62,098 nt of DNA from a virus (taxonomy: Duplodnaviria > Caudoviricetes): the IMG/VR virus record IMGVR_UViG_3300046777_000588, positions 1 through 62,098 of that record, one strand, 5' to 3'. Positions 7,173 through 31,810 of the stretch are shown piece by piece; positions within the stretch are counted from its first letter, which is position 1; the number at the start of each line of letters is the position of its first letter. The notes under the pieces are model-generated. The model searched no databases, was not told the DNA's origin, and worked only from the letters and a program-made list of their open reading frames with translations. The position numbers and the translations under genes are program-made.

Positions 7173-9596
7173 ATGGCAGATGTTTTAAAACCGCTACCCG
7201 CAATTGTTACCGATACTTACGCTAACAAGGCTCCGCGCATTTCAGATCAAAGCAAACCAAGGACATTAAACCTTGATGTTGTTGATCCTTCTCCTACTAG
7301 CAATGGAGATACTGTTGATCCAAAGACGCTACAAGTTCGTCGCACATTCAAAGATGCTGCCCAAGCTCACTCTGCCTATCGTCGCTTGAAACAACAGAAT
7401 GTTGAGCGCAACCGCAAGAATCAACTGATCCAAAAGAAGCTCAACAACGAGCCTCCATATAGCGCAAAGAAGCTGGAGAGCATGGGGCAGAACTGGCGCA
7501 GCAATCGTCCGACAGGATTCTTGTCCACGATGGTTAGCCGCATTCAGCCTCCGTTCAAACAAGTCATTGAGCAAGCTCCTACGCTGACATACACAAAGTT
7601 TCCTGTTGAGGGAGTTGACTCTGAAAACAAGACCAAGGTTTTCCGCGAAGAGATTACAAAATGTATCCGTGGATGGAAGGGCCATGACGACATCGTTGCA
7701 CAAGTTGTTCACGAGAATACCACCTTTGGATTCTGTGCATTGTGCTGGGATGATCTTCGTGATTGGAAGCCAGAGTTCCTTCGTCAAGACTACACATTCT
7801 TTTCTATCGAGACTCCGCAAGAAACAGAAGCAACTCCAATCTGGGCGCGGAAACGCCGCTATCAAATTGCAGAGTTGTTGCCAGTTCTCGAAGACCCGCA
7901 GATGTCCGCAATGGCTGGTTGGCACATCAAGAATCTTGTTAAAGCAATCAACAATGCTATCCCTGCTGGACGCACGCTTGATTCTGATGACGATGCTCGC
8001 CGATACGAGGATTGGATTCGTGAAGGAAGCTACGGAGCAAGCTACGAGAACGATGCGAAGTATGTCGAGCTAGGCGAGCTTTTGGTTCGTGAGCCAAATG
8101 GTAAGATTAGCCGTTTCCTTTTTGATGATAAATCTGGCGACGAGATTTGCACACAGATTGATCGTTACAGCAAAATGAGCGAATGCCTCGCGTTGTTTTC
8201 TGTTGAGATTGGTAGTGGTGCATTGATGAGTTCCCGTGGTGCTGGGCGCGATCTTTACAATACTCATATTGCTGTTGAGAAGGCTCGCAACCTTGTTGTG
8301 GATAATTCCTATCTATCTGGAATGTTGCTTCTCAAGAAAGGCCCGAATGCCAAGGCTGGGGCTGCTCCGCTGACTGTCCATCATCCTGTCGCTTATATCG
8401 CGGAGGGATATGAAGTGATTCCGCAGAATATGCCTGCGAATGTGAATGACTTCTTGAACTTGGATCGCTTCATTTCTGGTCTTGCTGAAATTCAGATTGG
8501 CACATTCCTTCCAAGTTCTGCTCTTGGAATGCGCGACCAGAAAGTTACTGCTTCTGAGATTAACAGGGTGGCGGCTATCGAGAATCAAATCCGCGAAGGA
8601 ATCTTGATGCGGTTTACCAAGCAATACAGCAAAGCAGTTGAGCGTATGCAACGAGGCATATGCCATCCAGAACATATCAAAGCTGCCGCTGAGTTGAAGA
8701 CCAAGCTAGACATCGCTCGCCAGATGGTTCCTAACGCTGTTTGGGCTAGGGCTGATGTTGTCGATGCGTTTGATCGTAGCGTCATGGAATTGCCATCGTT
8801 CATGGTTCCATTCCAAGTTCCAGATCATTTGGATGAGGAGGCGATTGCTTGTTGTCTTAATATGCTTGAGCGCAATCTTCCTCCTTCGGATATTCTTCTC
8901 ATGGCATATAGCCCTGCTGAAGAGTTGTTGCCAGATACCCAAGCTCAGAACGATCAGATTCTTGACATGATGATCCAACGATACATGGGCAATCCTAATG
9001 TCAATCAAGACGAATTGCTCAAGTTGGATTGGAGTCGTAAACTTGGTGAGAGTATTGCGAATAGTGTAATTCTTCCAAAAGACCAAGTTGAGTCTCTGGC
9101 TATCGAAGCAACCCGCCAGCAGATTATCGAGCTTCAATCCATCATCGCTGGTCAAGAGGTTCCAGTCTCTCCGCGAGATAATGACATGGTTCATTTGAGT
9201 GTCATGGCTCAAAAGCTAATGCCGCTTATTGAAAACGCTCCTGCTGGTTCATTGCCTCCAGAGATGGTTCAACCGCTGAACAAAGCATTGGAGCATTTCA
9301 TGGGACATATCATGCAAGCTCAAGCCAAGGGAGCAGATAATAAAAAATTGGCAGAGTTTCGTTCTGCCGCAGAACAAGCATTCAGTCATCTTACCGCAGG
9401 ATATGGTGTTCCTCCTCCACAAGACTTAATGCCAGCAGCCGCAGGTGGCGCACCATCTCCAGCAGCAGGCGGACGGACTGGCCGTGTTGCACTTGGTCAA
9501 TCACGCGAGTTTGGAAAACTTGAAGGAGAAGTTCCTACACAATTTGGGATGGTTAATGATGTGGCTAACCCTCCAAAGCCTCCAACTGCTGGATAA
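7173..9596 (+). CDS. Portal protein
   Basis: 807 aa, follows terL, KVTASEI motif, helical Q/P-rich C-terminus as in podovirus-type portals. Confidence 0.75.
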   Translation: MADVLKPLPAIVTDTYANKAPRISDQSKPRTLNLDVVDPSPTSNGDTVDPKTLQVRRTFKDAAQAHSAYRRLKQQNVERNRKNQLIQKKLNNEPPYSAKKLESMGQNWRSNRPTGFLSTMVSRIQPPFKQVIEQAPTLTYTKFPVEGVDSENKTKVFREEITKCIRGWKGHDDIVAQVVHENTTFGFCALCWDDLRDWKPEFLRQDYTFFSIETPQETEATPIWARKRRYQIAELLPVLEDPQMSAMAGWHIKNLVKAINNAIPAGRTLDSDDDARRYEDWIREGSYGASYENDAKYVELGELLVREPNGKISRFLFDDKSGDEICTQIDRYSKMSECLALFSVEIGSGALMSSRGAGRDLYNTHIAVEKARNLVVDNSYLSGMLLLKKGPNAKAGAAPLTVHHPVAYIAEGYEVIPQNMPANVNDFLNLDRFISGLAEIQIGTFLPSSALGMRDQKVTASEINRVAAIENQIREGILMRFTKQYSKAVERMQRGICHPEHIKAAAELKTKLDIARQMVPNAVWARADVVDAFDRSVMELPSFMVPFQVPDHLDEEAIACCLNMLERNLPPSDILLMAYSPAEELLPDTQAQNDQILDMMIQRYMGNPNVNQDELLKLDWSRKLGESIANSVILPKDQVESLAIEATRQQIIELQSIIAGQEVPVSPRDNDMVHLSVMAQKLMPLIENAPAGSLPPEMVQPLNKALEHFMGHIMQAQAKGADNKKLAEFRSAAEQAFSHLTAGYGVPPPQDLMPAAAGGAPSPAAGGRTGRVALGQSREFGKLEGEVPTQFGMVNDVANPPKPPTAG

Positions 9597-14862: not shown

Positions 14863-15555
14863 TCAGAATGGATTTACTATTTTAGGTTGTCTTATTCCTA
14901 ATTCAATTTTCATTTGTTTTAATCTTTCTTTTTCTTTTCTGCTAATTTCTGGAGGTTTTGTTGCTTTTGCGTATTCACTCAATCCAGATGTAGGCTTTGT
15001 TTTTGCAATCCATTCAAGATGATTTATTTGATCTCTTGTTGCCTTTAAATTTGGAGGGATTGAACAAAATGTATTGATTGTAATTTTCAGTATACCGCAA
15101 GCCATTTTGATTCCATGCCATGATCCATGATTCACTATATTACTAATAAGCATCATTGAAACTAAATGCTTTTTCTTGCTTTTGCTGTTTTGATTCTTTA
15201 CCGCGTCTTCAGTTATTTTTAATATTTGATCCTTATAGTGTGGGAATTTGAGAATTTTGCATTTGATTGCTGAATGAACCAAGTTGTGGCATTGTCTACA
15301 CAAGAATATCATTCTTGACTTTTGTTCTGCATTTGTTCGTAGAAACCTATATTCCATGTGATGAATATCGCTTCCCGTATTGCCGCATTTTTCGCAATTA
15401 CCATCATGGTTTCTTAAAAAAGAATCTCGCAATCTTTTCCACTCTTCTGATTTTAGATATTCATTCCTATACTCGTGACGAGTCATTTTGAACCCGCCAA
15501 TGCCTTTTAACTTTCTTTGTAGTTTTCTGTAGTTTTTAGGATTTAGTTTTTGCAT
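14863..15555 (-). CDS. HNH endonuclease (free-standing, inverted orientation)
   Basis: Y.EYL.S.EW, CEKC, HH..Y, LCRQCHN.VH; low GC. Confidence 0.85.
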   Translation of the reverse strand: MQKLNPKNYRKLQRKLKGIGGFKMTRHEYRNEYLKSEEWKRLRDSFLRNHDGNCEKCGNTGSDIHHMEYRFLRTNAEQKSRMIFLCRQCHNLVHSAIKCKILKFPHYKDQILKITEDAVKNQNSKSKKKHLVSMMLISNIVNHGSWHGIKMACGILKITINTFCSIPPNLKATRDQINHLEWIAKTKPTSGLSEYAKATKPPEISRKEKERLKQMKIELGIRQPKIVNPF

Positions 15556-16037: not shown

Positions 16038-17270
16038 ATGCCTACTTGTCAAACTATCCCTTTGAATGCAATTCAAGACTTTGCATCCAAAGATACACTT
16101 CGCATCATCGGTCAGATTGGCCGCGTGCTTGCTCGTAAATCCCCATACATCAACTCGATTGATGGTGGAACTCTCCCCAATGTCTCGGATGTTGTCCGTA
16201 GCGTTGTTGAGGAAATGGCCGTTCCATCTAATGCTGGTGTCAATGGTGCTGGTGCGCTTGCCGCTCCTTTGTTTTTGAATGACACCTCGCTTTGCGGTGC
16301 TGGTGCTACTCCTGATCAAGTTGGTTCGACTGAATACACATTCCAACTCCAGACCCTCCGTGGTGCTGGTCCTCGCGTTTGTGTCAAGCAAGCTCGCACG
16401 GCCTTCAAGGGTTCCTACCTCCAAGCTCAAATTGCGTTGGAAAAGACGATCCTTCAGCTCATCAACGCCGACATCCGCTATCAATACCTGATTCAGTCTG
16501 GCATCAAGTATGTTGTCAATAGCACCAAAACATTCTCTCAGAATCTGACTGGTGATATGCAAGTTCAGGGCGCACCTTGGGCTTCACACCTTCCAGATGC
16601 TCCGATGAACTTCAAGACCCTCTATCGTATCGGAACCTTCCTCCGTGAAGAGATGCTTGCAGAGCCTTTCGCCAGCAAAGATGGCGAGTTCTTCCAAGTT
16701 CTTGCTTCCTCCGACCAGATTGAAAACTTCCGCAACGATGCAGATGTCAAAGAAGACCTCCTGTATCTTTCCGCTGGTAGCTTCAAGCTCGGCGAAGAGA
16801 GCATCAGTGGTTATCAGTTCATGGGTTATCGTGGTTTCGCCTTTGGTATCGACCAACAGCCGCTTCGTGCGACTGGCTTCGATGGCAGCGGTAACCTCGT
16901 TCTCGTGAATCCTATCATTAGTCAAGCTGTTGACACAGGATTTGCTCAACGCCGCAACCCAATCTGGGTTGATGCTCCTTACGAAGTTATGTTCGTCATC
17001 GCTGGTGAAGCCTTCAAGCGTCTCATTCCTGAGCAGTATGTTGGTGAGGGAACCTTCAAGTTCGCTCCTCAACTCGCCATGGGTGAACTTGAGTGGACTT
17101 ACTTCCGTGATAACGATTGCAACCTCTATGGTGATTATGGTCAGCACATCTACCAAATCTCTCGTGCGATTCAGCCGATTCGCCCGCAGAATGTGTGCGC
17201 CATCGTCTACAAGCGTTGTCAGCTTGATGTAAATCCTCTCCCCTGCTCGACCTCTGCTACGGGTCTGTAA
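16038..17270 (+). CDS. Major capsid protein
   Basis: 410 aa, strongly biased codon usage typical of high expression, long leader, position after scaffold, downstream hairpin. Confidence 0.75.
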   Translation: MPTCQTIPLNAIQDFASKDTLRIIGQIGRVLARKSPYINSIDGGTLPNVSDVVRSVVEEMAVPSNAGVNGAGALAAPLFLNDTSLCGAGATPDQVGSTEYTFQLQTLRGAGPRVCVKQARTAFKGSYLQAQIALEKTILQLINADIRYQYLIQSGIKYVVNSTKTFSQNLTGDMQVQGAPWASHLPDAPMNFKTLYRIGTFLREEMLAEPFASKDGEFFQVLASSDQIENFRNDADVKEDLLYLSAGSFKLGEESISGYQFMGYRGFAFGIDQQPLRATGFDGSGNLVLVNPIISQAVDTGFAQRRNPIWVDAPYEVMFVIAGEAFKRLIPEQYVGEGTFKFAPQLAMGELEWTYFRDNDCNLYGDYGQHIYQISRAIQPIRPQNVCAIVYKRCQLDVNPLPCSTSATGL

Positions 17271-17286
17271 TAGGTAAGTTGGTATC

Positions 17287-17317
17287 GGTGGGGGGTGGTC
17301 CGAACCCGCCCCTCACC
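17287..17317 (+). terminator. GC-rich hairpin after the capsid gene (terminator or processing site)
   Basis: 12-bp stem with loop UCCGAAC; no canonical U tract. Confidence 0.5.
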
Positions 17318-17366
17318 TAATCAGCTTACATTTTACAAACTAAATCAAAACAACTACAATACCATT

Positions 17367-17636
17367 ATGGATATTCCTTCTATTCTCGACACAGCAAAAT
17401 ATCGCCACCTAGTCCTTGATGGTGTTCAAAGTGTATCTACTGCCCTTGCAAGTATTCAAGGTTTTCAGATTCCAGAGTATGACGAACTTTCTTTGACTTA
17501 CTACGGAGTCACCAACAACATCGCTACTGTTGTTTACAAAAAGGCATCTGCTCCTGTTGCAACATTGACTCTGACCTATTCTGTTCAGCCTCCTACCGCC
17601 AATGATGCCAATCTTGTCAATGTCAGCATATCTTAA
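17367..17636 (+). CDS. Small virion protein, possible capsid decoration or fibre anchor
   Basis: YDELSLTY...VVYKK...VATLTLTY beta-rich motif; immediately after the capsid gene. Confidence 0.65.
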   Translation: MDIPSILDTAKYRHLVLDGVQSVSTALASIQGFQIPEYDELSLTYYGVTNNIATVVYKKASAPVATLTLTYSVQPPTANDANLVNVSIS

Positions 17637-17638
17637 AT

Positions 17639-17812
17639 ATGGCAGTAAGATTCAATCCATTTACTGGGAAACTGGACTTAAGTTCTAATTCAACGCTTCA
17701 AATTAGCGAAGACGGAACTCTGCCAAATGGAAATGAAATTGCTCAAATACAAAGTGGAGAACTTACAAATGTAGCTGAAATTGATGCAGGAGAATATACA
17801 GAACCAGTTTAA
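17639..17812 (+). CDS. 57-aa fibre adaptor (N-terminal FNPFTGKLD, C-terminal IDAGEY)
   Basis: ORF translated by hand and missing from the track; shares its N-terminal motif with 22499. Confidence 0.7.
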   Translation: MAVRFNPFTGKLDLSSNSTLQISEDGTLPNGNEIAQIQSGELTNVAEIDAGEYTEPV

Positions 17813-17870
17813 AACTTTCTGAATAACCAGAAAAACCACCACAACAACAACAACAATAAAATAAAAAACT

Positions 17871-18659
17871 ATGGCAAATCCCATCATTCGTATTAAACGC
17901 GGTTCTAGCACCCCAGTTAGCTTGTCTTCTGGTGAGTTGGCAATCGACCTGACAAACCTCAACCTCTTCGTTGGTAAAGCTGACGGAACAGCACTCGCCG
18001 TTGGCGGTTCTGGAACTTTCGCTACCAAGAGCTATGCTGATAGTGCAGTCTCGACTGCGAACACTACTCTCTCTGCTGCTATCGCCGCTGAAGAGTCTGC
18101 TCGTATCGCTGCTGATGGCGTTCTGACAACCGATCTTAGCAATGAGATCACTCGCGCTACCGCCGCTGAAGGCGTTATCGCCAGCAATCTTGCAACTGAA
18201 ATCAGCGACCGCACCGCTGCTGTTTCGGCAGAAGCCACTGCTCGCAGCAATGCTGACACCGCCCTCGACGGCAAAATCACCACGGAGAAAAATCGCATCG
18301 ACGCGATCCTTTCCGCTGCTGACGCTGACAAAGACACCTTCGCTGAAATCGTAAGCCTCATCAACAGCGTTGATACTGCTAACGATTCTGCTTTTGCTGG
18401 TTATGTTACTAGCAACAATGCGGCTCTCGCCCAAGAGGTGACTGACCGCACGAATGCAGACACCGCTCTTGGTATTCGCATTGATGGCGTTGAGTCTGAT
18501 GCGACTGCTCTTGAAGCTCGCGTCACTACTGCTGAAGCTGACATTGTTACTAATGCTGGAGCCATTTCTAGCGAAGCGACCACTCGCGCCAATGCTGACT
18601 CGGCTCTTGACACCCGTGTTACTGCTCTCGAAACCACCATCGACGGCGGAGTTTACTAA
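17871..18659 (+). CDS. Coiled-coil fibre protein with Mtd_N-like head
   Basis: IRIKRG...LSSGELAID N-terminus, E..AR.AAD repeats, C-terminal IDGGVY. Confidence 0.75.
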   Translation: MANPIIRIKRGSSTPVSLSSGELAIDLTNLNLFVGKADGTALAVGGSGTFATKSYADSAVSTANTTLSAAIAAEESARIAADGVLTTDLSNEITRATAAEGVIASNLATEISDRTAAVSAEATARSNADTALDGKITTEKNRIDAILSAADADKDTFAEIVSLINSVDTANDSAFAGYVTSNNAALAQEVTDRTNADTALGIRIDGVESDATALEARVTTAEADIVTNAGAISSEATTRANADSALDTRVTALETTIDGGVY

Positions 18660-18675
18660 AATAAAACAAACAAGT

Positions 18676-18701
18676 CCTCCGTGGGGTAAAACCCACGGGG
18701 G
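18676..18701 (+). terminator. GC-rich intergenic hairpin
   Basis: CCTCCGTGGG/CCCACGGGGG stem. Confidence 0.45.
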
Positions 18702-18718
18702 CAACCCTCTTCAATAAG

Positions 18719-19240
18719 ATGGCAAATCCTAGGATCATTCCTAAAAAATCGACTGTCGTTGCTAAAGTCCCTATGACTGGCGACCTCGAAAACGGCGAGA
18801 TTTGTATAAATCACGCTGACAAGAAACTCTACGCTAAACATCCTAGCACGGGAGCTATACAAGAAATTGGCGGAATGCTCGTCCATTCTCACGATGAGCT
18901 TTACTCACCCGATAGCAGTCAGGTTTTAGAACTGCAAAATAATAGCGACCTCACAATAACAGCAGGTGGTTCTACAAAGACTTTCGTTCTACCTAGTGCA
19001 TCTGGAACGATTGCTACATTATCTGACATAACGGCAAGTGTGGCTGGAGTTACATCTGTAAACACTCGCACTGGTGCTGTAACGCTCACTATATCGGATA
19101 TTCCGGGGGCCGTCTCAAGCAGCACAACGGGCATGACTGGCGCAACGGCTTTAACAAATATAGTGCAAATCACTCAAAGCGGCTATAATGCGTTAGGCGC
19201 AAGCGTAAGCGCAAGCACTTTGTATATTATTGTGGGATGA
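18719..19240 (+). CDS. Fibre connector protein
   Basis: Mtd_N-like N-terminus (KKS...P..DL.NGEI.IN.AD.KLY), VTSVN..TGAV motif, C-terminal TLYIIVG. Confidence 0.7.
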   Translation: MANPRIIPKKSTVVAKVPMTGDLENGEICINHADKKLYAKHPSTGAIQEIGGMLVHSHDELYSPDSSQVLELQNNSDLTITAGGSTKTFVLPSASGTIATLSDITASVAGVTSVNTRTGAVTLTISDIPGAVSSSTTGMTGATALTNIVQITQSGYNALGASVSASTLYIIVG

Positions 19241-22197
19241 TACTTTCGGATTCCAGTTCAGCACGAGTTGGAGCCAGTGTGGTAAGTGCGGCATTGTCGA
19301 TTGTTGGAGCGATCAGGAATTTTTTTGTTTACACGGATTTTTTATTTAGTTCGGCGTTGTCCGGGGCTGTGGACTTGATAAAGGTGGGTGTGGGAACACT
19401 TACTTTGTCTGGAAATAATACTTACTCGGGGACGACAAAGATAAATACAGGAGTTCTTTCGATTGCGGACATAGCTTCCCTACCCGGTTGGAATGCTAAC
19501 GGAAGATATTCTGTAGAGTCAGGCGCAACGCTTGCGGTCTATAACGCAGTAACCGATGCGAATGTTGTCACGATTCTAGGAACGACTAACTTTAACGCAG
19601 GATCGGCTATAGGTTTCGATACGACATCAGGCAATAGGACATACTCGAATGTCATAGCAAACACTGCCAAAGGGGCTTTGGGGCTAACCAAGCTAGGGGC
19701 TAATACGCTGACGATCTCTGGCGCGAATACATATACCGGACCAACGCTTGTTATCGCTGGGACTCTCGCTACATCTACAGCTAACAGAATCCCTGATGCG
19801 TCTGCCGTTACGATCTTGTCTGGCGCGACAATTACTCTCGGAGGTGCGGACACCTTTGCCACTCTTGCGGGTTCAGGGACATTAACCTGTGGTGCAAACT
19901 CATTAACACTTAACTCTGCAAACTCTGCGACATTCAGCGGAACATTAACCAATACAGCAGGAACATTCTTTAAGTTAGGGTCAGGAACGCAAACGCTCTC
20001 TGGATCAACAACTGTTGCCACACAGGTTCGACTTGATGGTGGGGGAATTATATCCAGCGGGACATTTACTCAAACGGCAGTGGCTGGCGCGCGTAACTTC
20101 CAAATAGCTCTTAATGGAGGGACAACAGCCGCGCTAACTGTATCTAGCGGAACTATGACTGTTACTGGGTTATTCTTTGGAGAGAATAACGGCGGATCAG
20201 GGACAGTTAATTGCAATGCTGGAACGCTTCAGGTTAATGGCGAGACATGGATGACTGGTCTTGCCAGCATACTTAATGTTAATGGCGGAACATTTAATGG
20301 ATCAGCTTATGATATTGGTGGTGGTAGTGGAACTACGACAAGTATTGTAAACATAATATCTGGGACATTTGCATTAACTGGGAACCTTCGCTGGGGTATC
20401 GGCGGCGTGTCTGCAACATCTGTAATAAACCTAGATGGTGGAATATTTCGTTGCAATAACTGGTTTAGAAATGGCGGGACGAATACATTCAACTTTAACG
20501 GTGGAACATTTACTACAAACGCTAATAATTTAACGATAACTCAGCCGCTTATATCCTGCTTGATTAAAAGTGGTGGAGCTATATTTGGAAATGCTGTTAC
20601 GCTTATCTTCGATACTGTTCTAGCAAATGCACCTAGCGTTTCAGGGAATCTCGTAATGAATGGAACTGGAACACTGATTCTTCGTCAGGCCAATACATTC
20701 TCTGGAACGATTACAATCAATGCTGGCATACTTCAATTTGGGAATGGTTCTACAACTGGATCGGCTGGCTCAAGCAGTGGAATAACCAACAACGCAACAC
20801 TTACATTTAACCGCACTAATACAATAACGCAGGGAACAGACTTCCCTGTTATTAGCGGAAGCGGAATTCTTATTCAGTCTGGCAGCGGAACCACTATACT
20901 CGGTCTATCAAATAGTTATACAGGAGAAACTAGGATCAACGCTGGAACTTTGAGATTAGGCAACGCTAATGGATTTGGTTCTGGGAGCATTCGATTTAAC
21001 GGTGGAACGATGCAGTATGGAAGTGGCATTACAACAGATGTCTCATCTAGAATTGTAAATAATTCTTCCGCGATTCGCATAGATACAAATGGGCAGAATG
21101 TTGATTTCACATCTCTTGGATCAACCAATACTGGAGGACTGGTTAAAACCGGAACTGGGATATTAACAATGTCTGGTTCTGGTAATACTTATACTGGTGT
21201 CAATACAATTAGCGTAGGGGAAATGACATTCTCTGGAACCTATACTGCAACAAATGATGTCAAAATCAATGGTTCAGCTAATCCAATATTAAATATCAGC
21301 GGTAATTTTACACAGACATTTACTGGAAGCGGTGTGCGTAGCTTTCAACTCGCAGGCAGTGCAGGAAATACAGGAACCGTAAATGTAAGTGGATCAGCAG
21401 TTGTTACACTTAATGGCGGAATGATGCTTGGTGATAACGGCGGTGGCAACGGAACATTCAATCAAACTGGCGGGACGGTTAGCACTAGCACTAGTGGAAC
21501 TTGGTTGGCTGGCGCTGTCTGCTTGTTGAATGTATCAGGGGGAACTTTCACAACACCCGGCATTGAGTGCGGTGGTGGAACTGGCGCTGGGACTTTAACC
21601 GTTTCTGGAACAGGAACAATCAATACGGGTAGCCTTTTTCTAAATCGCGGAAGCGGGGCTGGTGTATCTGCTGTATTGAATGTAAATGGAGGAACGCTGA
21701 CAACTACTGGCATAACGCATGTTACTACCGCTAGACCAGCGACTATAAATTTCAACGGTGGAGCATTCACAAGTCTTAATGCAATGACGATACCATCAAC
21801 AGTATCGTGTATTGTTAAGTCTGGCGGAGCCGTTTTCAATGTGGCAGGCGCATTAACAATCAATAGCGCACTGACCGATGGCATAGGTGGCGGCGGGCTA
21901 ACGAAACAAGGCTCTGGCACGCTGGTTCTTAATGGGGCAAATACTTTCACTGGGGCGACAGCTATTTCGGCAGGATTGATCCGAGTCGCCAAAGCAGTTG
22001 GCGGCATCACGGGAACGGCCACTTACTCGCCGACTTCTTTGACCGTTGATTTTGCAAATGTGACCCCTACGAGCGGCGCGGCTTACCGATTCTTTCCCGG
22101 CTCAACAGCAACCACCGGATTGACAATCTCCCTCACTAACGCAGGGGGTAAGACGGCTACTTACGATTACTCAAACTCAACTCTCACCATCGTATGA
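19237..22197 (+). CDS. Adhesin/fibre with autotransporter-associated beta-strand repeats
   Basis: About seven K.G.GTL.LSG.NTY.G.T.I..G repeats; no beta-barrel or signal peptide seen. Confidence 0.85.
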   Translation: MILSDSSSARVGASVVSAALSIVGAIRNFFVYTDFLFSSALSGAVDLIKVGVGTLTLSGNNTYSGTTKINTGVLSIADIASLPGWNANGRYSVESGATLAVYNAVTDANVVTILGTTNFNAGSAIGFDTTSGNRTYSNVIANTAKGALGLTKLGANTLTISGANTYTGPTLVIAGTLATSTANRIPDASAVTILSGATITLGGADTFATLAGSGTLTCGANSLTLNSANSATFSGTLTNTAGTFFKLGSGTQTLSGSTTVATQVRLDGGGIISSGTFTQTAVAGARNFQIALNGGTTAALTVSSGTMTVTGLFFGENNGGSGTVNCNAGTLQVNGETWMTGLASILNVNGGTFNGSAYDIGGGSGTTTSIVNIISGTFALTGNLRWGIGGVSATSVINLDGGIFRCNNWFRNGGTNTFNFNGGTFTTNANNLTITQPLISCLIKSGGAIFGNAVTLIFDTVLANAPSVSGNLVMNGTGTLILRQANTFSGTITINAGILQFGNGSTTGSAGSSSGITNNATLTFNRTNTITQGTDFPVISGSGILIQSGSGTTILGLSNSYTGETRINAGTLRLGNANGFGSGSIRFNGGTMQYGSGITTDVSSRIVNNSSAIRIDTNGQNVDFTSLGSTNTGGLVKTGTGILTMSGSGNTYTGVNTISVGEMTFSGTYTATNDVKINGSANPILNISGNFTQTFTGSGVRSFQLAGSAGNTGTVNVSGSAVVTLNGGMMLGDNGGGNGTFNQTGGTVSTSTSGTWLAGAVCLLNVSGGTFTTPGIECGGGTGAGTLTVSGTGTINTGSLFLNRGSGAGVSAVLNVNGGTLTTTGITHVTTARPATINFNGGAFTSLNAMTIPSTVSCIVKSGGAVFNVAGALTINSALTDGIGGGGLTKQGSGTLVLNGANTFTGATAISAGLIRVAKAVGGITGTATYSPTSLTVDFANVTPTSGAAYRFFPGSTATTGLTISLTNAGGKTATYDYSNSTLTIV

Positions 22198-22454
22198 TTA
22201 TCAACCCCAACTGGACTGTTAGTGACCAAGGCCCTTGGCAACTGATTTACAACAATCAGCAGATTATTTATTTGCACGAAGCGCAAGGAACTACTTCAAC
22301 TCAGGGCAATTTGTTTGTCGGAACAAAAGAGGAGTGTGAGGCTGAGATCACTCGCCTCGGACTGCCATTCCCGCAAGTCGAAGACCCAGAGATCGAGCCA
22401 TTATCGACTTTCCAAACTCTCCCAAACCTTCAGCCACTTGAGATTGAATTATAG
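22194..22454 (+). CDS. Hypothetical protein, possible fibre chaperone
   Basis: ATGA-coupled to the adhesin gene. Confidence 0.6.
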   Translation: MIINPNWTVSDQGPWQLIYNNQQIIYLHEAQGTTSTQGNLFVGTKEECEAEITRLGLPFPQVEDPEIEPLSTFQTLPNLQPLEIEL

Positions 22455-22498
22455 GTGAATATTTGACAAATTTACAAAAAAAACACTAATAATAAATT

Positions 22499-24304
22499 AT
22501 GGCACTCACATTTAATCCATTTACTAGTAAACTTGACTTTACTGGAAGTCAAGCCAGCGCAGCAATTGGTGCGACTGGTGCTACAGGGCCTGCTGGCGGT
22601 CCAACGGGAGCAACTGGAGCAACTGGCGATGCTGGGGCTACTGGAGTAGGTGCTACTGGCGCGACTGGGTTGGTTGGTGCTACAGGGATTCAAGGATCAA
22701 CAGGGTTGACTGGAGCTACAGGGATTGGGGCTACTGGTTCTACTGGACTGACTGGCGATACTGGGTCAACAGGCGCAACAGGAGCAAGCGGAGCTACTGG
22801 CATTGCTGGAAATGATGGGGCTACAGGAGCTACTGGTATTGCTGGAAATGATGGGGCTACGGGATCAACTGGAGCCACGGGTGCTACTGGTTCTTTTGGA
22901 GCGACAGGGGCAACTGGTGTTGCTGGAACTAATGGCTCTACTGGAGCCACAGGTGCTACTGGATTATCTGGAAGCACAGGAGCAACTGGAATCGGTTCTA
23001 CTGGAGCTACTGGAAGCGTTGGTTCTACAGGTGCAACAGGCGTTGGAGCAACAGGAGCAACTGGCCCTACTGGTGCTGGTGGTGCTTCTGGATACTACGG
23101 ATCGTATTTCAGCAATGTAGACCAAGTTGCCGCATTGCCTAGCACGGCCTACGCGATGACTGTAAACAATATCGTTGGTGAAAATGGTGTATCAGTTGTT
23201 AGCGGTTCTCAAATTACTTTTACAAGCACGGGAACTTACGACATCCAGTTCTCTGCTCAATTTCATAACAATGGCGGTGGAGGCTCTGGCAATACAGTCC
23301 AAATCTGGTTCCGTAAAAATGGAACAGATATTCCAGAATCTGCTACTAGAATTTCAGTCCCAACAAACAATCCTTATGTCGTAGCGGCATGGGACTTCAT
23401 GGATAATTTTACTGCTGGAGATAACTTCCAGATTATGTGGTCAACTGATAATACAAATATCAGTATTGACCACAATACAGCAGTTGCTCCTGCTCCCGCA
23501 ATTCCATCAGTAATCATCACAGTAATGCAGGTGATGTATAATCAGCTTGGTCCTCAAGGAGCTACTGGGTTGACTGGAGTTAGGGGGGCGACAGGGGCAA
23601 CTGGTCCTGATGGAGCGACTGGAGCGACTGGGGCATCTTATCTTGCCTATGCCTTTGAAGCAATGGATCATTTCAATGGCTCATCATCCCCATTGCAATT
23701 AACTGGTGCTGGTGTTGCTGGAGGATCGGCAGCATATGTTAATCCAACAACATACAATGGATTTGGAATTTTTAGAATAGAAACTCAAAATAGCACAACC
23801 GCAAATAGCGGAGCCAGAATAAATCAAACTGGAAATACTATTTCATTTTCTCCAAAAGGAATTGGAGAGTTCCGTCATATTAGCAGAGCAATGCGAATTT
23901 CTGCTGATATGTTTGATGGAACAATACAAGGAACATTTAGGACGGGAATTGGAGATGTCATAAATGCGCTGCCAAACAATGGAATTTATTTTCAATGTAT
24001 AAATAGCAATTCTGTTTCATTTGTTACAAGAAGCGCAGGAGTTGAAACGCTCACAAACACAGGATTCTCAATTCTGCAAGACGCATGGAATAGCTTTGAA
24101 TTTATTCTTGCAACAGATGGATTGAGTGTTGTCGCAAAAATAAACAACAATATTGTCGCAACACATACCACAAATATTCCAAATGCCTACATGGGTGTTA
24201 TCACATTCTTGCAAAAACAGGTTGCCGTTGCTGGATATGTTCGTTTTGATTTAGATTTCATATATCAAAAATTTACTCCTTCACCAATACCATTTAATCC
24301 ATGA
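22499..24304 (+). CDS. Collagen-like fibre protein
   Basis: Long Gly-X-Y (GAT) tracts, N-terminal FNPFTSKLD, internal BclA/C1q-like beta domain, C-terminal lectin-like domain. Confidence 0.85.
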
Positions 24305-24468
24305 TAACTGTTTACAAAATTATTTTAGATAATGGATATATTGAGTTTTTGAATATGGATGAAGCAATTCAGTATAGAGATAAAAACCATAAAAATTCAG
24401 AAATAGAAACCATCCAAAGAGAAAATGTAATCAACCCAATCGAAGTAGAATATAATGAACTCAGATAG
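24301..24468 (+). CDS. Small hypothetical protein
   Basis: 55-aa ORF translated by hand, ATGA-coupled to the collagen gene. Confidence 0.5.
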
Positions 24469-26880: not shown

Positions 26881-27645
26881 ATGTCCTGCAATTGCAATAA
26901 TTCTACCTATGTCAGCACTTGCTGCCCCGACATTCCATATCCTACGATTTCCCCAGAATCGGTTCCATCGCTAATTTCCAATCTTGTAAACGCTCTTTAC
27001 GGAGAAATTACTAAATCAGTTGTGGATGGACGAGTAGTTTGGAATATTCCGTGTGATCCAAACAATACTGCCGAGATTGATGGGTTCCCAAGGTTGCCAG
27101 ACGAAGGATTGCTTTGCTACATCATTCGTTATTTTGATGTTCTTGCTCCATCTTTAATTAATGCTGTTACGATTAATGGAACTCAAACAATTACTGGTCA
27201 GAAAACATTTACTCTTCCAGTTCTTGGCGATGCGGTAAACAGCAGTCTTACTCAAACAATTGCAGGTCAAAAGACATTTACACTCCCAGTTCTTGGAGAT
27301 GCGGTAAATAACACTCTTGCTCAAACAATCACAGGGAATAAAACATTTAACTGGATTAAACTTCCTGTAGGAACAACTGGAACTCGTCCAACTGGCGAGA
27401 CTGGCCTTGTTCGTTTTAATACTGATCGCAATCAATTTGAGGGTTACAACAACACAGCTTGGACTGGCATTGGAGACCAGCCTGTTGGTGGCGGAACAAA
27501 TCGTCTTTTCTTTGAAAACGACCAAGTAATGACAACAAATTACACAATTACATCTGGCAAAAATGCAATGTCAGCAGGGCCAATCACAGTAAACCCCGGA
27601 GTTGTATTAACAGTTCCATCAGGAAGCACCTACACAATCGTATAA
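26881..27645 (+). CDS. Tail fibre/spike anchor protein
   Basis: Cys-rich N-terminus, 23-aa repeats, RFN..FEGY and NAMSAGPITV C-terminal modules. Confidence 0.7.
   Translation: MSCNCNNSTYVSTCCPDIPYPTISPESVPSLISNLVNALYGEITKSVVDGRVVWNIPCDPNNTAEIDGFPRLPDEGLLCYIIRYFDVLAPSLINAVTINGTQTITGQKTFTLPVLGDAVNSSLTQTIAGQKTFTLPVLGDAVNNTLAQTITGNKTFNWIKLPVGTTGTRPTGETGLVRFNTDRNQFEGYNNTAWTGIGDQPVGGGTNRLFFENDQVMTTNYTITSGKNAMSAGPITVNPGVVLTVPSGSTYTIV
27181..27350 (+). repeat. About 2.5 tandem copies of a 69-bp coding repeat
   Basis: (A/G)CTCAAACAAT units start at 27181, 27250 and 27319. Confidence 0.8.
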
Positions 27646-27649
27646 TATT

Positions 27650-29533
27650 ATGTCACTAATTCTCGACGGAACATCTGGACTATTTGGCAATGTAACTGGA
27701 GGAGACATCTCTGGTAATTTCATTGGATTGAACGGGAATGGTAGTTCGCTTACAGCAACCGCTACAGGCAGCACAACCGCTCGCTCGCTTGCGAATCGTT
27801 TTGCTGATGTGGTGAATGTATTGGATTTTGGAGCATTTAATGATGGCACAAATGCGGCAGCTACAACAACTGCAATTCAAAACGCCGTTGCTTTTGTTGC
27901 AACAAGCGGAAAACAAATATTTTTCCCTGCTGGAACATATAAAATATCATCTGTTATTTCTACTACTGGACACCTAAATATTTTAGGTGAAGGTGAAAAA
28001 ACTATATTAGATTTTAGTGGAATAGCATCTGGTTCTTCTGGAATTACTGTTACTGGATCAATTACACAAATACAAAATGTAACAAGCGCAAGCAAGGGAA
28101 GTTTAACAATTACATTTGCCAGCGCACCTTCATTAACAACTGGAGATGTATTCTGCTTGTTTGACAATGCTGTTTTATGGAATAGTGTAAGAGCATATTA
28201 CTATTCTGGTGAGTGGCTTGAATGCCGTGGGACAAGTGGTTCGAACGCTACAACAACAAATCCACTTTATGACAGCTACACTCCAGCAACAGTAAAAGCA
28301 TACAAATTATCAAGCCCAGAAGTTTCATTTAAAAACTTTAGGATTGTTGGTGGAGCAAACATCTTTGGGCTTATTCAAGTATCGTTTTGCGATAAGCCTA
28401 TATTTGAGAACATATCTGCCTACAACGAAAACTATCAATGTATTATTATTGATCGTTGCTACCGCGCAATGGTAACGAACTGCGTGATGTATAACAAAGG
28501 CACAGGAACTTTGGATGATTACGGATTGACTATTGGCAATAGTCAAAAAGTTCAAGTTACTGGAGGAGACTATTATGGTAGACGGCATGGAATAGCAATT
28601 GGTGGAGGAGATTATCCTTGTGCCGTTACCAATAGAAATATACGCATTTCAAATTCAACTATTAGCAATGATATTCTTTCTCAAGTATCTTCTGCTGATA
28701 TGCACGGGAATGTTGAAGATGTATATTATCAAGGTTGTCAAATTTATCAAGGTGCTGCTATTGCTGGTAAAAATACTGGTTATGACAATTGCACAATTGT
28801 GAATCAATATAATGGTATTGTTGTATATGCGTCTGAATTAAAAGGAGGAACTTTTTCAGTAAGAAATTGCACACTAATTACAGCTGCTGATTCTTCAGTA
28901 ATAAGCAGAAGCATAATTGATTTTGGTGGTAATGGTGGAGCAATTGAGAGTTCAACAAATGAAACTGTATCTATTATTATAAATAATTGTCATATTGAAG
29001 GAACTGGACAAAGTTCTGCAACAGATGTTTTGCGTATGGCAAACAACGGGTCTTCTGCTTATGTAAATATTTATATTAATGGATTAACAGCAAATGTAAA
29101 TGCTATGGGTGCAATTTTGAGAACTGGAGTTAATGTAGGCAGCGCACTTTCACAAGCTATTGTTGTAGATAATATTAGTAATTTCCCAAGCGGAGTTTAT
29201 TTACACCTTCCAATGGGTGGTGCATATAGCAATATTCCTCAACGCATGATGCGTCAGTCTGGATATTTAAATATGGCAGCATCAAGTGGAACAAAATTTA
29301 CAGTAGCATCACCAATTTCTTATAAATATTTTTATCCTAAAACTCCTCAAGCGTCTTTTTCTATTGGAGGAACAACAGGATTTTCAAATCCAGCAAGTGA
29401 AAATGTTGGAGTCACTGGCTACAGCGTTACAACTTCAGCTATTAGGCCAGCTTTAGTTTCGACCAGTAACGCAAACTGGACAGCAACATTTACCGCTACA
29501 GCAAATTGGATAGTTGGAATAGAAGAAGTTTAA
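27650..29533 (+). CDS. Tailspike 1 (pectate lyase-like beta-helix)
   Basis: RSLANRFADVVNVLDFGA...T.AIQ.A...FPAGTY motif and beta-helix composition. Confidence 0.85.
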   Translation: MSLILDGTSGLFGNVTGGDISGNFIGLNGNGSSLTATATGSTTARSLANRFADVVNVLDFGAFNDGTNAAATTTAIQNAVAFVATSGKQIFFPAGTYKISSVISTTGHLNILGEGEKTILDFSGIASGSSGITVTGSITQIQNVTSASKGSLTITFASAPSLTTGDVFCLFDNAVLWNSVRAYYYSGEWLECRGTSGSNATTTNPLYDSYTPATVKAYKLSSPEVSFKNFRIVGGANIFGLIQVSFCDKPIFENISAYNENYQCIIIDRCYRAMVTNCVMYNKGTGTLDDYGLTIGNSQKVQVTGGDYYGRRHGIAIGGGDYPCAVTNRNIRISNSTISNDILSQVSSADMHGNVEDVYYQGCQIYQGAAIAGKNTGYDNCTIVNQYNGIVVYASELKGGTFSVRNCTLITAADSSVISRSIIDFGGNGGAIESSTNETVSIIINNCHIEGTGQSSATDVLRMANNGSSAYVNIYINGLTANVNAMGAILRTGVNVGSALSQAIVVDNISNFPSGVYLHLPMGGAYSNIPQRMMRQSGYLNMAASSGTKFTVASPISYKYFYPKTPQASFSIGGTTGFSNPASENVGVTGYSVTTSAIRPALVSTSNANWTATFTATANWIVGIEEV

Positions 29534-29548
29534 CAAACAAACAAAACT

Positions 29549-29806
29549 ATGGCACTAAAATTAACAAAAACTACACCGCAAGGATTTATCGCAACTGATG
29601 CTTATCATCGTGTTGAGTATATTAGTTTACAAAATAAAAACTCTATTGTTTTTATGGTATCAAGTTACAAAGATGAATCAGAATCTCAAGCCTTTCGTTC
29701 TGAAAGGAATTTCTGCTCTTACGACCTAAACGGAGAAAACCCAATCAAGCAAGCCTACCTACATCTTAAAACCTTGCCAGAGTTTGCGGATGCGGTAGAC
29801 TGCTAA
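29549..29806 (+). CDS. Tailspike-associated small protein/chaperone, copy 1
   Basis: NPIKQAYLHLKTLPEFADAVDC; paralog of 31830. Confidence 0.75.
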   Translation: MALKLTKTTPQGFIATDAYHRVEYISLQNKNSIVFMVSSYKDESESQAFRSERNFCSYDLNGENPIKQAYLHLKTLPEFADAVDC

Positions 29807-29812
29807 TACACT

Positions 29813-31810
29813 ATGAGCGCAAACATTAAAGCATCAGTAGACGGAACACAGGCAATCATCGGGGTAGGTGGTGTAGACCAGATGACTGTGAGCAACGCTG
29901 GCGTAGTCACGGCAAATAGCTTTGTAGGCAATGTAACTGGAGGAGACATCTCTGGTAACGCATCAAGTGCTACGGCTATTGCAACTGGATCAACTGGAGT
30001 ATCCGCAGGATCATTCGTTGTTGGACAGCAATACAAAATTACTTCTCTTGGAACAACGACACAAGCGCAATGGAATACAATTGCTGGAACAACAGGACAA
30101 ACTTATGTAGTTGGGTCTTTGTTCACGGCAGCTACTACTGGAGCAAGTTCTGGAAATGGATCGGCAGCAGTAGCAAGGACATTGGCAAATCGCTTCGCTG
30201 ATGTAGTGAATGTAAAAGATTTTGGCGCGGTTGGAGATGGGGTTGCGGATGATACTGCTGCGATTCAAGCCGCGATTAATACTGGGAAATCTATTGTTTT
30301 TCCAGAAGGAATATACATTGTTTCATCCCTTAACATTAATTCAAAAACAAAATTATTTGGCTTGGGTACACTCAAGAAAACAACCGTAACTGGGACATCA
30401 ATTTTAAATATTGCATCAAACGATGTAGAAATTGATGGACTTACATTTTTGGGTGCTAGTGTTGATACATTGATTCCGACAACTAATGACGCAGACAACG
30501 CAATTACTATTTCTGGAACATCAACTCCAACTCAATTTCAAAACATAAAAATCCAAAATTGCACTATTAACGGAGTAGCTGGTTTTGGTGTTAGAGTTAA
30601 CTATGCAACAAATGTTTGGGTTTTGAACAATAACATTTCTTACTGCGGATATGCTGGTATTCTTTTGTTATCTGTAATTCATGGAATTGTTGATGGAAAT
30701 AGAGTAAGAAATATTGACTCTTCTGCTAGTGCAACTAATAATTGGTATGGAATCTCCATTACAAGAGATGCGACTAAAACAATAGCAAATTCTGCAAGAT
30801 CAACAAATTGTGTGATTACAAATAATGTAGTTTCCAATGTTACGAAATGGACAGGCATTGACATCCATGCAGGATATAAAAGCATTATTGACAGCAATCA
30901 AGTATACTATTGCAAAAAGGGAATGTATGCACAATATGATGATGCTACAGAAACAAACAGACAACCATCAGAAACAATTGTCTTTTCAAACAACATTGTA
31001 GAAGGTAATCTTGCGGCAGCAGACTCATCTTTGGGTATTGCATCGCTAGGTCTAGCAGGAATGCCTAACCTAGATATAACAATTACTGGCAATCAAATTA
31101 TTAGAGGCGGAGGTTATGCGTCGAGCAATGGCGGTTTGTATGTTACAGAAACTAAAACCTGCATTGCATCAAACAACATCATAAAAAATAGCTGGCGATC
31201 TGGCATTTCTATTGGAGCAAACTGTGATGACATTGTTTTTGAAAATAATAAAATTAATGGTATACAACCAGATGGATCAGGATTAAGCACATATTATTGT
31301 TATTTTCCAAGCACTACTGTCACAAATACTGTATTGAGAAATAATTATTTCTTAAACAATACTGGAGTATCAGCAAATACTCCAACATATGGAATATTAT
31401 ATTTTGCTGGAACATATACTGGAATAACATTAGATAGAAATAGAATGAATGAATTCCCAACAGTTTCATTTTTATTTAACGCATTAAATTCCAATCGTTA
31501 TCAAGATTTTAAATTTATTCTTGAACCAACATCACAATATGCATCATTGAATGTAACTTCAGCAAATACGACAGAAGTAACAAGCGTCACGATTGGTAGA
31601 AATGTATATGGAACTCAACTTACTGCTACATTAATATATAATGTAAATAGAACTACAGTAACAAATCCAAAAATATTTGCCTGCATTACTGGACAAGCAG
31701 CACTAAATACCTATCAAGTAACTGCATATACATCAGACGCAACAACATTTGGTGTTACTGGAACTATACCAGTAACTTTAACAGTTCAAGGAATATGTTG
31801 GACAGAATAA
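29813..31810 (+). CDS. Tailspike 2 (pectate lyase-like beta-helix)
   Basis: NVKDFGAVGDGVADDTAAIQAA..PEG.Y motif. Confidence 0.88.
   Translation: MSANIKASVDGTQAIIGVGGVDQMTVSNAGVVTANSFVGNVTGGDISGNASSATAIATGSTGVSAGSFVVGQQYKITSLGTTTQAQWNTIAGTTGQTYVVGSLFTAATTGASSGNGSAAVARTLANRFADVVNVKDFGAVGDGVADDTAAIQAAINTGKSIVFPEGIYIVSSLNINSKTKLFGLGTLKKTTVTGTSILNIASNDVEIDGLTFLGASVDTLIPTTNDADNAITISGTSTPTQFQNIKIQNCTINGVAGFGVRVNYATNVWVLNNNISYCGYAGILLLSVIHGIVDGNRVRNIDSSASATNNWYGISITRDATKTIANSARSTNCVITNNVVSNVTKWTGIDIHAGYKSIIDSNQVYYCKKGMYAQYDDATETNRQPSETIVFSNNIVEGNLAAADSSLGIASLGLAGMPNLDITITGNQIIRGGGYASSNGGLYVTETKTCIASNNIIKNSWRSGISIGANCDDIVFENNKINGIQPDGSGLSTYYCYFPSTTVTNTVLRNNYFLNNTGVSANTPTYGILYFAGTYTGITLDRNRMNEFPTVSFLFNALNSNRYQDFKFILEPTSQYASLNVTSANTTEVTSVTIGRNVYGTQLTATLIYNVNRTTVTNPKIFACITGQAALNTYQVTAYTSDATTFGVTGTIPVTLTVQGICWTE

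Follow-up and report, generated by a model that had tools for sequence, protein, structure and literature searches.

A candidate segmented fibre system with two recurring terminal joints in a tailed virus from IMG/VR

Introduction

The fibres of phages set their host range, and phage genomes are at their most mosaic in the fibre genes. In the anchor-and-branch sets of receptor-binding proteins of Klebsiella and Escherichia podoviruses and of CBA120/G7C-type phages, a first protein docks to the virion and the others dock via conserved N-terminal pieces. Here, a fibre cassette at positions 17,367 to 24,304 of a 62,098-nucleotide (nt) stretch of DNA (the window) is analysed, which is the whole of IMG/VR record IMGVR_UViG_3300046777_000588 (Duplodnaviria; Caudoviricetes) and is estimated to be a complete genome of 62,098 bp with direct terminal repeats. 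A reading of the sequence alone had proposed that the cassette encodes a chain of capsid fibres in which short terminal motifs link the products of adjacent genes. With a probability of about 0.6, the region encodes a segmented, non-covalently assembled fibre system whose adjacent polypeptides are joined by two conserved joint types. This reading is carried by the motifs themselves, by their strict end positions, by a gene order that pairs them in lineages unrelated to each other, and by protein-level selection. The chain would be held together by physical docking, probably between trimers, and would run from N-proximal to C-distal elements away from one of the virion sites weighed below.

Genes and proteins are referred to by their first nucleotide in the window or by their length in amino acids (aa). 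In the proposed chain, the C-terminal four-stranded beta-meander of the 89-aa adaptor (17367) would serve as docking platform for the N-terminal M-x-x-x-FNPFTGKLD of another protein (joint 1, core and plug), and the IPSILDTAKYRHLVL motif of the adaptor would fix the assembly to the virion. Both the 57-aa connector (17639) and the collagen-like fibre (22499) bear the plug and would therefore share or compete for the same platform. Joint 2 would have the [ILV]D[AGC]Gx[YF] tail of one protein dock onto a trimeric Mtd_N-like head with which the next protein begins, and it would be used twice, between the connector (IDAGEY) and the 262-aa coiled-coil shaft (17871) and between the shaft (IDGGVY) and a 173-aa protein (18719), which would carry or end the chain together with the translationally coupled PATR adhesin (19237).

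Proposed joint 1: the 89-aa core and the FNPFT plug

The back-translated plug pattern has two matches in the window, at the N-termini of the connector and of the collagen-like fibre as the sequence-only reading had noticed, and none is expected from 100 shuffles. The connector begins with MAVRFNPFTGKLD; its open reading frame (ORF) has 14 distinct homologues with 29 invariant columns and is therefore taken as a real gene, which is always followed by a 17871-type head gene. Relatives of the capsid protein encoded upstream of the cassette number at least 147 in IMG/VR, and 80 loci were kept, representing 67 distinct relatives. A free-standing gene of ~89 aa with a visible next gene is found in 32 of the 67, and the next protein is FNPFT-headed in 29 of these 32 (26 by regular expression, and L024, L042 and L043 as the variants FNPFTGS or FNPFTGM), the exceptions being L006, L015 and L017. 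Some partners are connectors of 56-58 aa; the others are long fibres of 470-730 aa, many of them collagen-like. This adjacency, which recurs in many lineages, argues for 17367 as the partner or 'socket' of FNPFT proteins, and the collagen fibre, which had been suggested as an alternative plug for it, is likewise supported as a user of this socket: in relatives without the 57-aa chain, a collagen-type FNPFT fibre is encoded immediately behind the 89-aa gene.

The association extends beyond the capsid relatives. A scan of IMG/VR with the back-translated motif gave at least 130 stretches, and examination of 80 loci of ~5 kb each left 75 distinct occurrences, in 66 of which a methionine stands exactly four residues before the motif. 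A core-bearing frame ends at most 60 nt upstream in 48 of the 75 and is found elsewhere in the 5-kb locus in five more. Synonymous codons vary at every position of the motif (phenylalanine is TTT in 37 cases and TTC in 36, glycine uses four codons and leucine six), indicating that the constraint acts on the protein. The plug strings FNPFTG and NPFTGKLD were found in no paper of the open-access and preprint library searched (subscription papers, supplements and other wordings lie outside this search), and one FNPFT match was unrelated.

On the other side of the joint, a profile of the 89-aa family matched 2637 cluster representatives at E<=0.001, 303 of them at E<=1e-10. In ~141 of the top 150 of these (table read by eye), at most three residues follow the core match before the protein ends. 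The proteins in this set measure 68-452 aa, with N-terminal extensions of 0 to ~370 aa, and include a 419-aa coiled-coil protein; one representative of 3236 aa matched the profile in 16 stretches. Proteins upstream of the plug share only their C-terminal ~60 aa, and their N-termini are of unrelated types, namely IPSILDTAKYRHLVL, QPCF..LTPDQQNYNIY, ENCFKESTPDVQNWE or almost nothing in proteins of 62-65 aa. No name or described function was found for this putative socket family in a library that itself carries no names, and the only family match of the 89-aa protein is a weak one to phrog_26903, which is annotated as of unknown function.

The AlphaFold2 (AF2) model of the 89-aa protein has four strands in its core (residues 40-89) with a predicted local distance difference test (pLDDT) value of ~90, preceded by an N-terminal helix (residues 13-29) with a pLDDT of 54-57. 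A profile search of PDB sequences gave nothing significant, and a Foldseek search of the PDB stayed without a row at E<=0.001, the best rows being the RHS shells 4igl_D, 8qjc, 7q97 and 8uy4 (weak, E ~1-3). The best Z in a wide VIA-align search was 3.9, and a search of BFVD returned small cyanophage proteins, including a 71-aa 'YD repeat-containing protein' of Synechococcus phage S-SRP01 (E 7e-4). In Synechococcus phage Syn5 (L283, 12639-16204), the 114-aa protein gp52 has a YD-like C-end and matches the same model weakly in BFVD (E 0.19); it adjoins gp53 and gp54, which we take to be the capsid 'horn' proteins. As an instance of joint 1, the gp52/gp53 pair was set aside and kept as a lead only: the core hidden Markov model (HMM) does not match gp52, and gp53 starts with MALIVDPDDLTKD, not FNPFT. 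A literature search on the Syn5 horn gave no relevant paper.

A different type of small protein, of 80-99 aa and ending in W.DRA..TY[SIK], replaces the core before FNPFT-headed proteins in loci L102, L105, L137, L146, L085 and L094, and similar endings (..NDRASLTYT, ..SNRTSLSYS) close some 18719-type proteins. This class may represent a further joint type.

Proposed joint 2: C-terminal tails and Mtd_N-like heads

Use of the 18719-type head as a query added 62 further loci. Over all loci, 3051 unique adjacent gene pairs were compared, and tail and head occur together in 89 of them; in 13 further tail and head pairs the first protein is a 58-aa connector with its motif 11 residues from the end, just beyond the 10-residue limit applied to the tail. 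The remaining pairs, apart from those discussed below, carry neither tail nor head (2944 of the 3051). A tail-type protein directly precedes 102 of the 103 heads, the lone exception being an artefact of a truncated locus, and inside proteins the tail-like motif is rare, with 8 internal occurrences across the 868,845 residues of the open frames. Such conserved adjacency supports the idea, taken from the sequence-only reading, that DGGxY tails partner Mtd_N-like heads. The heads are equally strict in position and begin at residue 1-6 in 46/46 17871-type proteins, in 36/36 18719-type proteins and in 2/2 longer relatives. In the window, the shaft ends exactly in ...TIDGGVY, as had been noticed, and in the 57-aa connector (tail half TLPNGNEIAQIQSGELTNVAEIDAGEY) IDAGEY occupies residues 48-53 and is followed by TEPV; with these four residues behind it, the motif lies near, not at, the end. 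Literature searches with tail-motif strings yielded only unrelated papers among the matches listed, and a paper on phage K8 that was found under Mtd_N has no bearing on the joints.

The first elements of joint 2 comprise the FNPFT connector, proteins of 59-69 aa with CFKE-type N-termini and others of 71, 81, 87, 353 and 504 aa, as well as collagen-like proteins (114 and 179 aa). Tallied by their leading hexamer they form 25 groups, two of which are the shaft's own MANPII/MANPIL, and the small first elements span 56-87 aa. The 17871-type proteins keep head and tail invariant around shafts of 194-387 aa in the loci, with two further relatives of 476 and 461 aa; the shafts are coiled coil or non-helical, and their length differs by insertions and deletions in the coiled coil.

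Two Mtd_N-like heads had been proposed, and they differ in how they can be recognised. The 17871 N-terminus (MANPIIRIKRGSS...GELAIDL) matches Pfam Mtd_N (PF18454) but falls short of its curated cut-off (26.3 bits), with a score of 17.9-20 bits and E values of 0.003 to 6.5e-4; the same family matches 21 of 24 17871-type homologues at E<=0.01 (best 1.7e-7), and a 77%-identical head (P0155) bears precomputed PF18454. The 18719 head (MANPRIIPKKST...GEICINHADKKLY) has no Pfam Mtd_N match, nor has any of its homologues (0/12), and it is tied to the 17871 head by profile-profile comparison only, with an hhalign probability of 96.7% (E=3.7e-10, 47 columns). The AF2 model of residues 1-110 of 17871 (pLDDT 88) shows four strands followed by a long helix. 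In the Foldseek search with the head model, Mtd and HylP chains make up 13 of the first 16 listed rows, at weak E values of 0.6-2.7 and probabilities of 0.2-0.57. Searches of PDB sequences with profiles of both heads gave nothing significant.

Tails and heads also correspond in subtype. Before 17871-type (IKRG) heads, 51 pairs have the tails DAGE[YF] (38), DGGEF (5), DGGT[YF] (2) and others (6), often with 1-5 extra residues after the motif. Before 18719-type (PKKS) heads, the tails of 50 pairs are DGGTY (38), DGGVY (8), DCGTY (2), DGGAY (1) and DGGSY (1), and are always the very last residues. The tail subtype thus predicts the head subtype, DAGE[YF]/DGGEF in 43/51 as against DGG[TVAS]Y/DCGTY in 50/50. 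The gene order is always an upstream protein X, then a 17871-type and then an 18719-type protein; the order of socket, 57-aa connector, coiled coil and second connector that had been read from the window is conserved across lineages. As 17871 carries both head and tail, it had been suggested that it might polymerise and lengthen the fibre. The subtype correspondence argues against this, and no locus has tandem 17871-type genes, so self-polymerisation is disfavoured, although it is not impossible, since a 17871-type head is preceded in two cases by an X protein that ends in DGGT[YF].

The proposed joints in cultured phages and exchange of modules

The window has no near or distant relative among 50,697 GenBank phage records, and searches of GenBank phages with the whole region, the capsid protein, the 89-aa protein and the 17871 head gave no match. 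The plug motif itself is present in the cultured cyanophages S-RIP1, S-SRP02, S-H1 and KBS-S-2A, and a core gene of 62-82 aa lies directly upstream in 4/4 (E 4e-19 to 5e-23). For joint 2, tblastn with 18719 gave 15 records from 9 phages, of which 7 phages were examined. A tail-type ending is present upstream of the head in 7/7, exact in P-HM2, MED4-213, DC31 and 172P1 and as a variant in S-CBS2 and S-CRES3 (..SGGTFGSG) and in BcepSaruman (..IDGGVIG). P-HM2 and MED4-213 encode, in this order, a 74-aa protein (..NGGSF), a 562-aa head protein (..IDGGTF), a 69-aa ORF and a giant head protein annotated as gp7. In Limnohabitans phage DC31, a 93-aa protein (..IESGQY) is followed by a 590-aa head protein (..IDGGTY) and a 119-aa head protein (..NTLYIVTGV). 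The four consecutive genes of Vibrio phage 172P1 (L279, 2028-5264) hold three tails, those of gp18 (..IDGGVY), gp19 (..IDGGAY) and gp20 (..IDGGSY), and two heads, those of gp20 and gp21. This excess of tails suggests branching or alternative first elements.

Modules are exchanged at the same boundaries. The tail half of the connector (TLPNGN.IAQIQ.GEL.NV..IDAGEY) is fused to a CFKEKTLDGQLY-type N-terminal half in L214, L252, L254 and L259, and this N-terminus resembles those of the ENCFKES- and QPCF-type 89-aa-like adaptors. In the QPCF-type clade, three complete genomes lack a window-like capsid protein (0/5 records searched), and their adaptor matches the same PHROG core. In L073-L080, fibres of 184-770 aa carry two copies of an anchor motif of the type IPSILDTA.YR.L.L in direct fusion, and these loci lack an FNPFT gene. 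Within the window, an HMM of the anchor motif matches only 17367; a candidate second bearer of the motif, the tail fibre at 26881, was accordingly rejected. The N-terminal peptide of the 89-aa protein is read here as virion-specific, and core/plug and tail/head would be portable couplings.

The 18719 protein and its possible link to the adhesin

The 18719 protein matches phrog_29752 (E 2e-11), and its residues 146-172 align with positions 1-26 of 26 of Phage_tail_C (PF24243) at 12.6 bits (E 0.089), below the cut-off of 23.7; the likeness of the TLYIIVG end to this family is a lead only. The stop codon of the gene, whose product ends in ...STLYIIVG, overlaps the ATG of the adhesin gene by 4 nt (ATGA), in line with the coupling that had been proposed, and overlaps of 4 or 1 nt are the rule between an 18719-type gene and the next. 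The adhesin matches PATR in 6 stretches (129.8 bits, cut-off 27). Particular endings are followed by particular proteins: NTxYxIx by MILT/SNS-type (MILTNS) adhesins in 12 unique pairs and by MPQPIK in 3, KVWLIGTR by MLLINPYRF in 8, AVEVRSAA by MARAF in 5, and SNRTSLSY by a 93-aa MNA..PLQIDG protein in 13. An adhesin type follows the TLYIIVG-type ending in only 5/13 cases in the loci of the 67 capsid relatives and in 13/32 in the wider locus set, where lysis genes come next in 9/32. FNPFT collagen fibres with nothing but lysis genes after them have the NTxYxIx ending as well, a generic fibre ending that is not specific to the adhesin. Coupling between 18719 and the adhesin is plausible, but this link is weaker than joints 1 and 2, since the TLYIIVG ending is found on partnerless fibres as well.

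Small genes of 50-90 aa directly follow each long fibre gene, at 22194-22454 and 24301-24468 in the window and in the relatives L002, L009 and L014, and are candidate fibre chaperones. In relatives, a gene of 71-81 aa holds the place of the window's 86-aa gene after the adhesin, a correspondence by position alone, and a recurring type (MI.RYVILN..GGWLEN..LWDGN) follows fibres that end in ..TTYF.

Genomic setting of the cassette

The features of the cassette are collected in Table 1.

Table 1. Features in and directly upstream of the fibre cassette; positions are those of the window.
Feature	Positions	Strand	Length or stability	Remarks
Putative major capsid protein	16038..17270	+	410 aa	possible N4-gp56-like fold
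RNA hairpin between capsid gene and adaptor gene	17274..17329	+	-36 kcal/mol, z -6.06	
Adaptor ('socket')	17367..17636	+	89 aa	N-terminal IPSILDTAKYRHLVL, nt 17373-17417; putative platform, beta-meander core residues 32-89, nt 17460-17633
Connector	17639..17812	+	57 aa	FNPFTGKLD plug residues 5-13, nt 17651-17677; tail motif nt 17780-17797
Shaft protein	17871..18659	+	262 aa	Mtd_N-like head residues 1-52, nt 17871-18026; coiled coil; IDGGVY nt 18639-18656
Hairpin between shaft gene and 18719 gene	18674..18702	+	-22 kcal/mol, z -4.67	no U-tract
Connector or tip protein	18719..19240	+	173 aa	head MANPRIIPKKS..., nt 18719-18877; C-end TLYIIVG nt 19217-19237
PATR-repeat beta-helix-type adhesin	19237..22197	+	986 aa	Pfam PATR (PF12951) 3.5e-38
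Protein after adhesin	22194..22454	+	86 aa	no Pfam/PHROG match; candidate fibre chaperone
Collagen-like fibre	22499..24304	+	601 aa	N-terminal FNPFTSKLD plug nt 22511-22537

The cassette lies between the capsid gene and the lysis genes and is the most variable part of the locus in relatives. The capsid protein has no Pfam and no PHROG match, and an Atlas structure search links it to N4-gp56 family capsid clusters (PF13252/PF25209) with a template modelling score of 0.65 by query and 0.82 by row. The collagen-like fibre matches Pfam Collagen (PF01391) in 3 stretches of G-x-y repeats (75.9 bits, cut-off 27.2, E 2e-21) and the tail fiber family phrog_6320 (E 1e-43). Among 200 shuffles, none was as stable as the hairpin after the capsid gene, which has no U-tract after it; an upstream GTG at 17295 lies inside this strong hairpin, and the ATG at 17367 is therefore the likely true start of the adaptor gene. 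Both hairpins may tune the expression ratio of the chain members. A scan for promoters and terminators gave counts no higher than in shuffles.

On the 3' side, the cassette is followed by small membrane proteins and an endolysin at 25055, and then by a separate tail module (26881-31810) with pectate-lyase-type spikes at 27650 and 29813. The fibre at 26881-27645 opens this module with a conserved Cys-rich N-terminus (MSC.C...CCP[DE].PYP..S.ESVPSLI), which heads proteins of 204-1366 aa in relatives (e.g. L073, L075 and L080) and appears to be a third portable anchor type in the same phage group. A 200-aa protein at 51340-51942 matches the Erv1/Alr sulfhydryl oxidase family just under the Pfam cut-off (26.8 against 27.6 bits, E 6.8e-6), which is unusual in a tailed phage and may be linked to the Cys-rich fibre N-termini. 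Between the upstream plus-strand genes and the capsid gene, 14863-15555 encodes on the minus strand a 230-aa protein with CxxC and HH motifs that resemble an HNH endonuclease, with no Pfam match. The glycosyltransferase at 3067-4173 matches phrog_3408 at E 3e-196, far above the match of any structural gene of this phage. Several long frames match little: the 2131-aa ORF at 44424-50819 has no Pfam family at E<=0.001, the 807-aa ORF at 7173-9596 has neither a Pfam nor a PHROG match, the 1241-aa ORF at 32833-36558 has no Pfam match and only domain-level PHROG matches over residues 475-801, and the 700-aa ORF at 36563-38665 has only a weak PHROG match to an internal virion protein.

Discussion

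The segmented-chain reading has to be weighed against several observations that speak against it. A core gene is absent from the ~5-kb locus of 22/75 FNPFT occurrences, many of which are second fibres or lie at locus edges, and one distinct FNPFT class follows the W.DRA..TY-ended proteins instead. Four pairs have a tail without a head: in L013-type loci, the gene after that of a 121-aa protein with the tail VDGGSF encodes 83 aa in which no head can be recognised; this 83-aa protein itself ends in IIDAGEFE and precedes a head. The annotated 69-aa ORF of P-HM2 and MED4-213 separates the tail gene from the head gene. Fold matches are weak for both joint modules (E ~1), and much of the adjacency count reflects shared ancestry and not independent events; the independent support is the diversity of first elements, of shafts and of cultured lineages. 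No open frame in any locus fuses a tail to a head, and a search of longer proteins found two with a head, both at the N-terminus and without fusion, which is weak evidence. Finally, the Bbp9 fibre upstream of Mtd in BPP-1, the founding Mtd phage, ends in ...ADLGGIA, which is only loosely tail-like. The last two points also fit with the terminal motifs being self-contained folding or trimerisation caps, a foldon-like C-end and an N-terminal trimer cap, on proteins that attach singly and are neighbours only in inherited cassettes; fibre ends often bear folding nuclei, as in T4 fibritin, and Mtd and HylP carry the head, yet the protein upstream of Mtd in BPP-1 has only the loose variant. This alternative is nevertheless improbable, given that proteins of 56-87 aa are made up entirely of a tail plus an anchor or plug and would be purposeless as independent fibres, that the tail subtype foretells the head subtype, and that the pairing persists with unrelated N-termini of the first elements and in all seven cultured phages. 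That the 89-aa and 57-aa proteins act as fibre assembly chaperones outside the virion is suggested by their small size, their lack of a known family and their position beside fibre genes, and is a still slimmer prospect: both genes lie upstream of the fibre genes, the known chaperone genes (Tfa, gp38) usually lying downstream, long fibres are found that carry the N-terminal motif of the 89-aa protein in fusion, and the core closes long coiled-coil proteins such as the 419-aa representative. The cassette is highly mosaic and swaps fall exactly at the conserved ends, as they would if these were DNA-level recombination linkers at module boundaries and not protein interfaces. However, every motif position varies synonymously, the intergenic DNA of the two junctions is unlike beyond ATGGCAAATCC, and the motifs are kept across phages without detectable DNA similarity, which makes linkers the least credible of the alternatives.

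For the segmented chain, the site on the virion is a separate matter. The chain had been assigned to the capsid, a tentative placement; in cultured phages, the genes that hold or adjoin the joints are annotated as tail fibre or baseplate. A chain that is a tail or neck appendage, with the 89-aa protein anchored to the tail, portal or neck region, has close to an even chance. In S-RIP1, joint 1, with an FNPFT protein that bears the annotation tail fiber, follows a 496-aa gene whose product has an N-terminus that, recognised by eye, we take to be T7-gp17-like. A 186-aa gene, presumably for a head-tail connector by similarity, precedes joint 1 in S-H1 and KBS-S-2A. Among the myoviruses and siphoviruses examined, joint 2 adjoins an annotated baseplate gene (gp7, baseplate wedge initiator) in P-HM2 and lies within annotated structural, tail-fibre or long-tail-fibre genes in S-CBS2 and BcepSaruman. 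A head-associated site is favoured, in contrast, by a cassette that begins right after the putative capsid gene in the clade of the window and in another one whose set of capsid genes differs, by the separate tail-fibre and spike module with its own Cys-rich N-terminus, by an anchor motif that no other protein of the window shares with 17367, and by the position of the core/plug pair two to three genes after the coat gene in S-H1 and KBS-S-2A. Overall, capsid or neck is put at somewhat under even odds and the tail at about even odds or slightly less, with a small remainder for a site that is neither or that stays unsettled. The joints themselves seem indifferent to virion location.

A wider and rather doubtful version of the chain would make the two joints universal 'snap joints' of tailed phages, with a subtype code that fixes the order of assembly and with the adhesin chain and the collagen fibre hanging on a head-associated anchor. 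The six-residue C-terminal peptide would complete or cap the trimeric Mtd_N-type head of the next protein, and the nine-residue N-terminal peptide would extend the two-hairpin beta-meander at the C-end of the previous one. T4-like and T7-like cyanophages, Zobellviridae and the present podovirus with its N4-type capsid would then set fibre length and specificity by exchange of whole genes. If the chain reading is true, short portable end pieces would explain how receptor-binding genes move between unrelated phages with assembly retained, would provide an annotation rule that links orphan small ORFs of 57-90 aa to fibre partners, and would be simple handles with which to build chimeric fibres in laboratory phages. 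The idea is directly testable, since the joints are present in the cultured and tractable phages S-RIP1, KBS-S-2A, 172P1, DC31 and P-HM2.

Comparison with known systems

Like the anchor-and-branch sets, the cassette would supply several separately encoded fibres to one virion site and is swapped between phages. Those sets use a folded anchor and T4-gp10-like branching domains, whereas the joints proposed here are short peptides in a linear chain, and no T4-gp10-like branching family was found among nine proteins scanned with Pfam at E<=0.1. One joint would pair a ~60-aa beta-meander with nine residues at an N-terminus, and the other would pair six residues at a C-terminus with an Mtd_N-like head. 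The long tail fibre of T4 (gp34-gp35-gp36-gp37) is likewise encoded by neighbouring genes as trimeric or monomeric segments that join end to end and non-covalently; no sequence relation to it was found, its joints are of another kind, and the connectors of the present chain are tiny (57 and 89 aa) and hold joint elements only.

The N-terminal head of 17871-type proteins may correspond to that of Mtd of BPP-1 and of HylP, a streptococcal prophage hyaluronidase (Foldseek rows 1yu1, 1yu0, 6x3m, 2c3f and 2dp5, among others, at the weak E values given above), and the Mtd gene of BPP-1 follows the tail-fibre gene bbp9 as the heads follow tail-bearing proteins here. Unlike in Mtd and HylP, the body after the 17871 head is a coiled coil and not a lectin or lyase, and the Bbp9 end departs from [ILV]DGGx[YF]. 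The core of the 89-aa protein recalls RHS/YD-repeat beta-hairpins in sequence (..TLTLTYD..N.L..V..), with no Pfam match and weak Foldseek rows; unlike those systems, it has only two hairpins, with no shell and no toxin. The head fibres of phi29 (gp8.5), P68, 7-7-1 and crAss-like phages are known capsid-fixed fibres and would be comparable if the capsid placement is right, and the phi29 head-fibre gene also follows a capsid gene. These head fibres are described as single proteins and not chains, and no sequence or fold relation to them was found. Measured against all of these, the chain would be a variant form of the modular phage fibres, assembled by two joint types, an idea that is largely supported by gene order and motif comparison.

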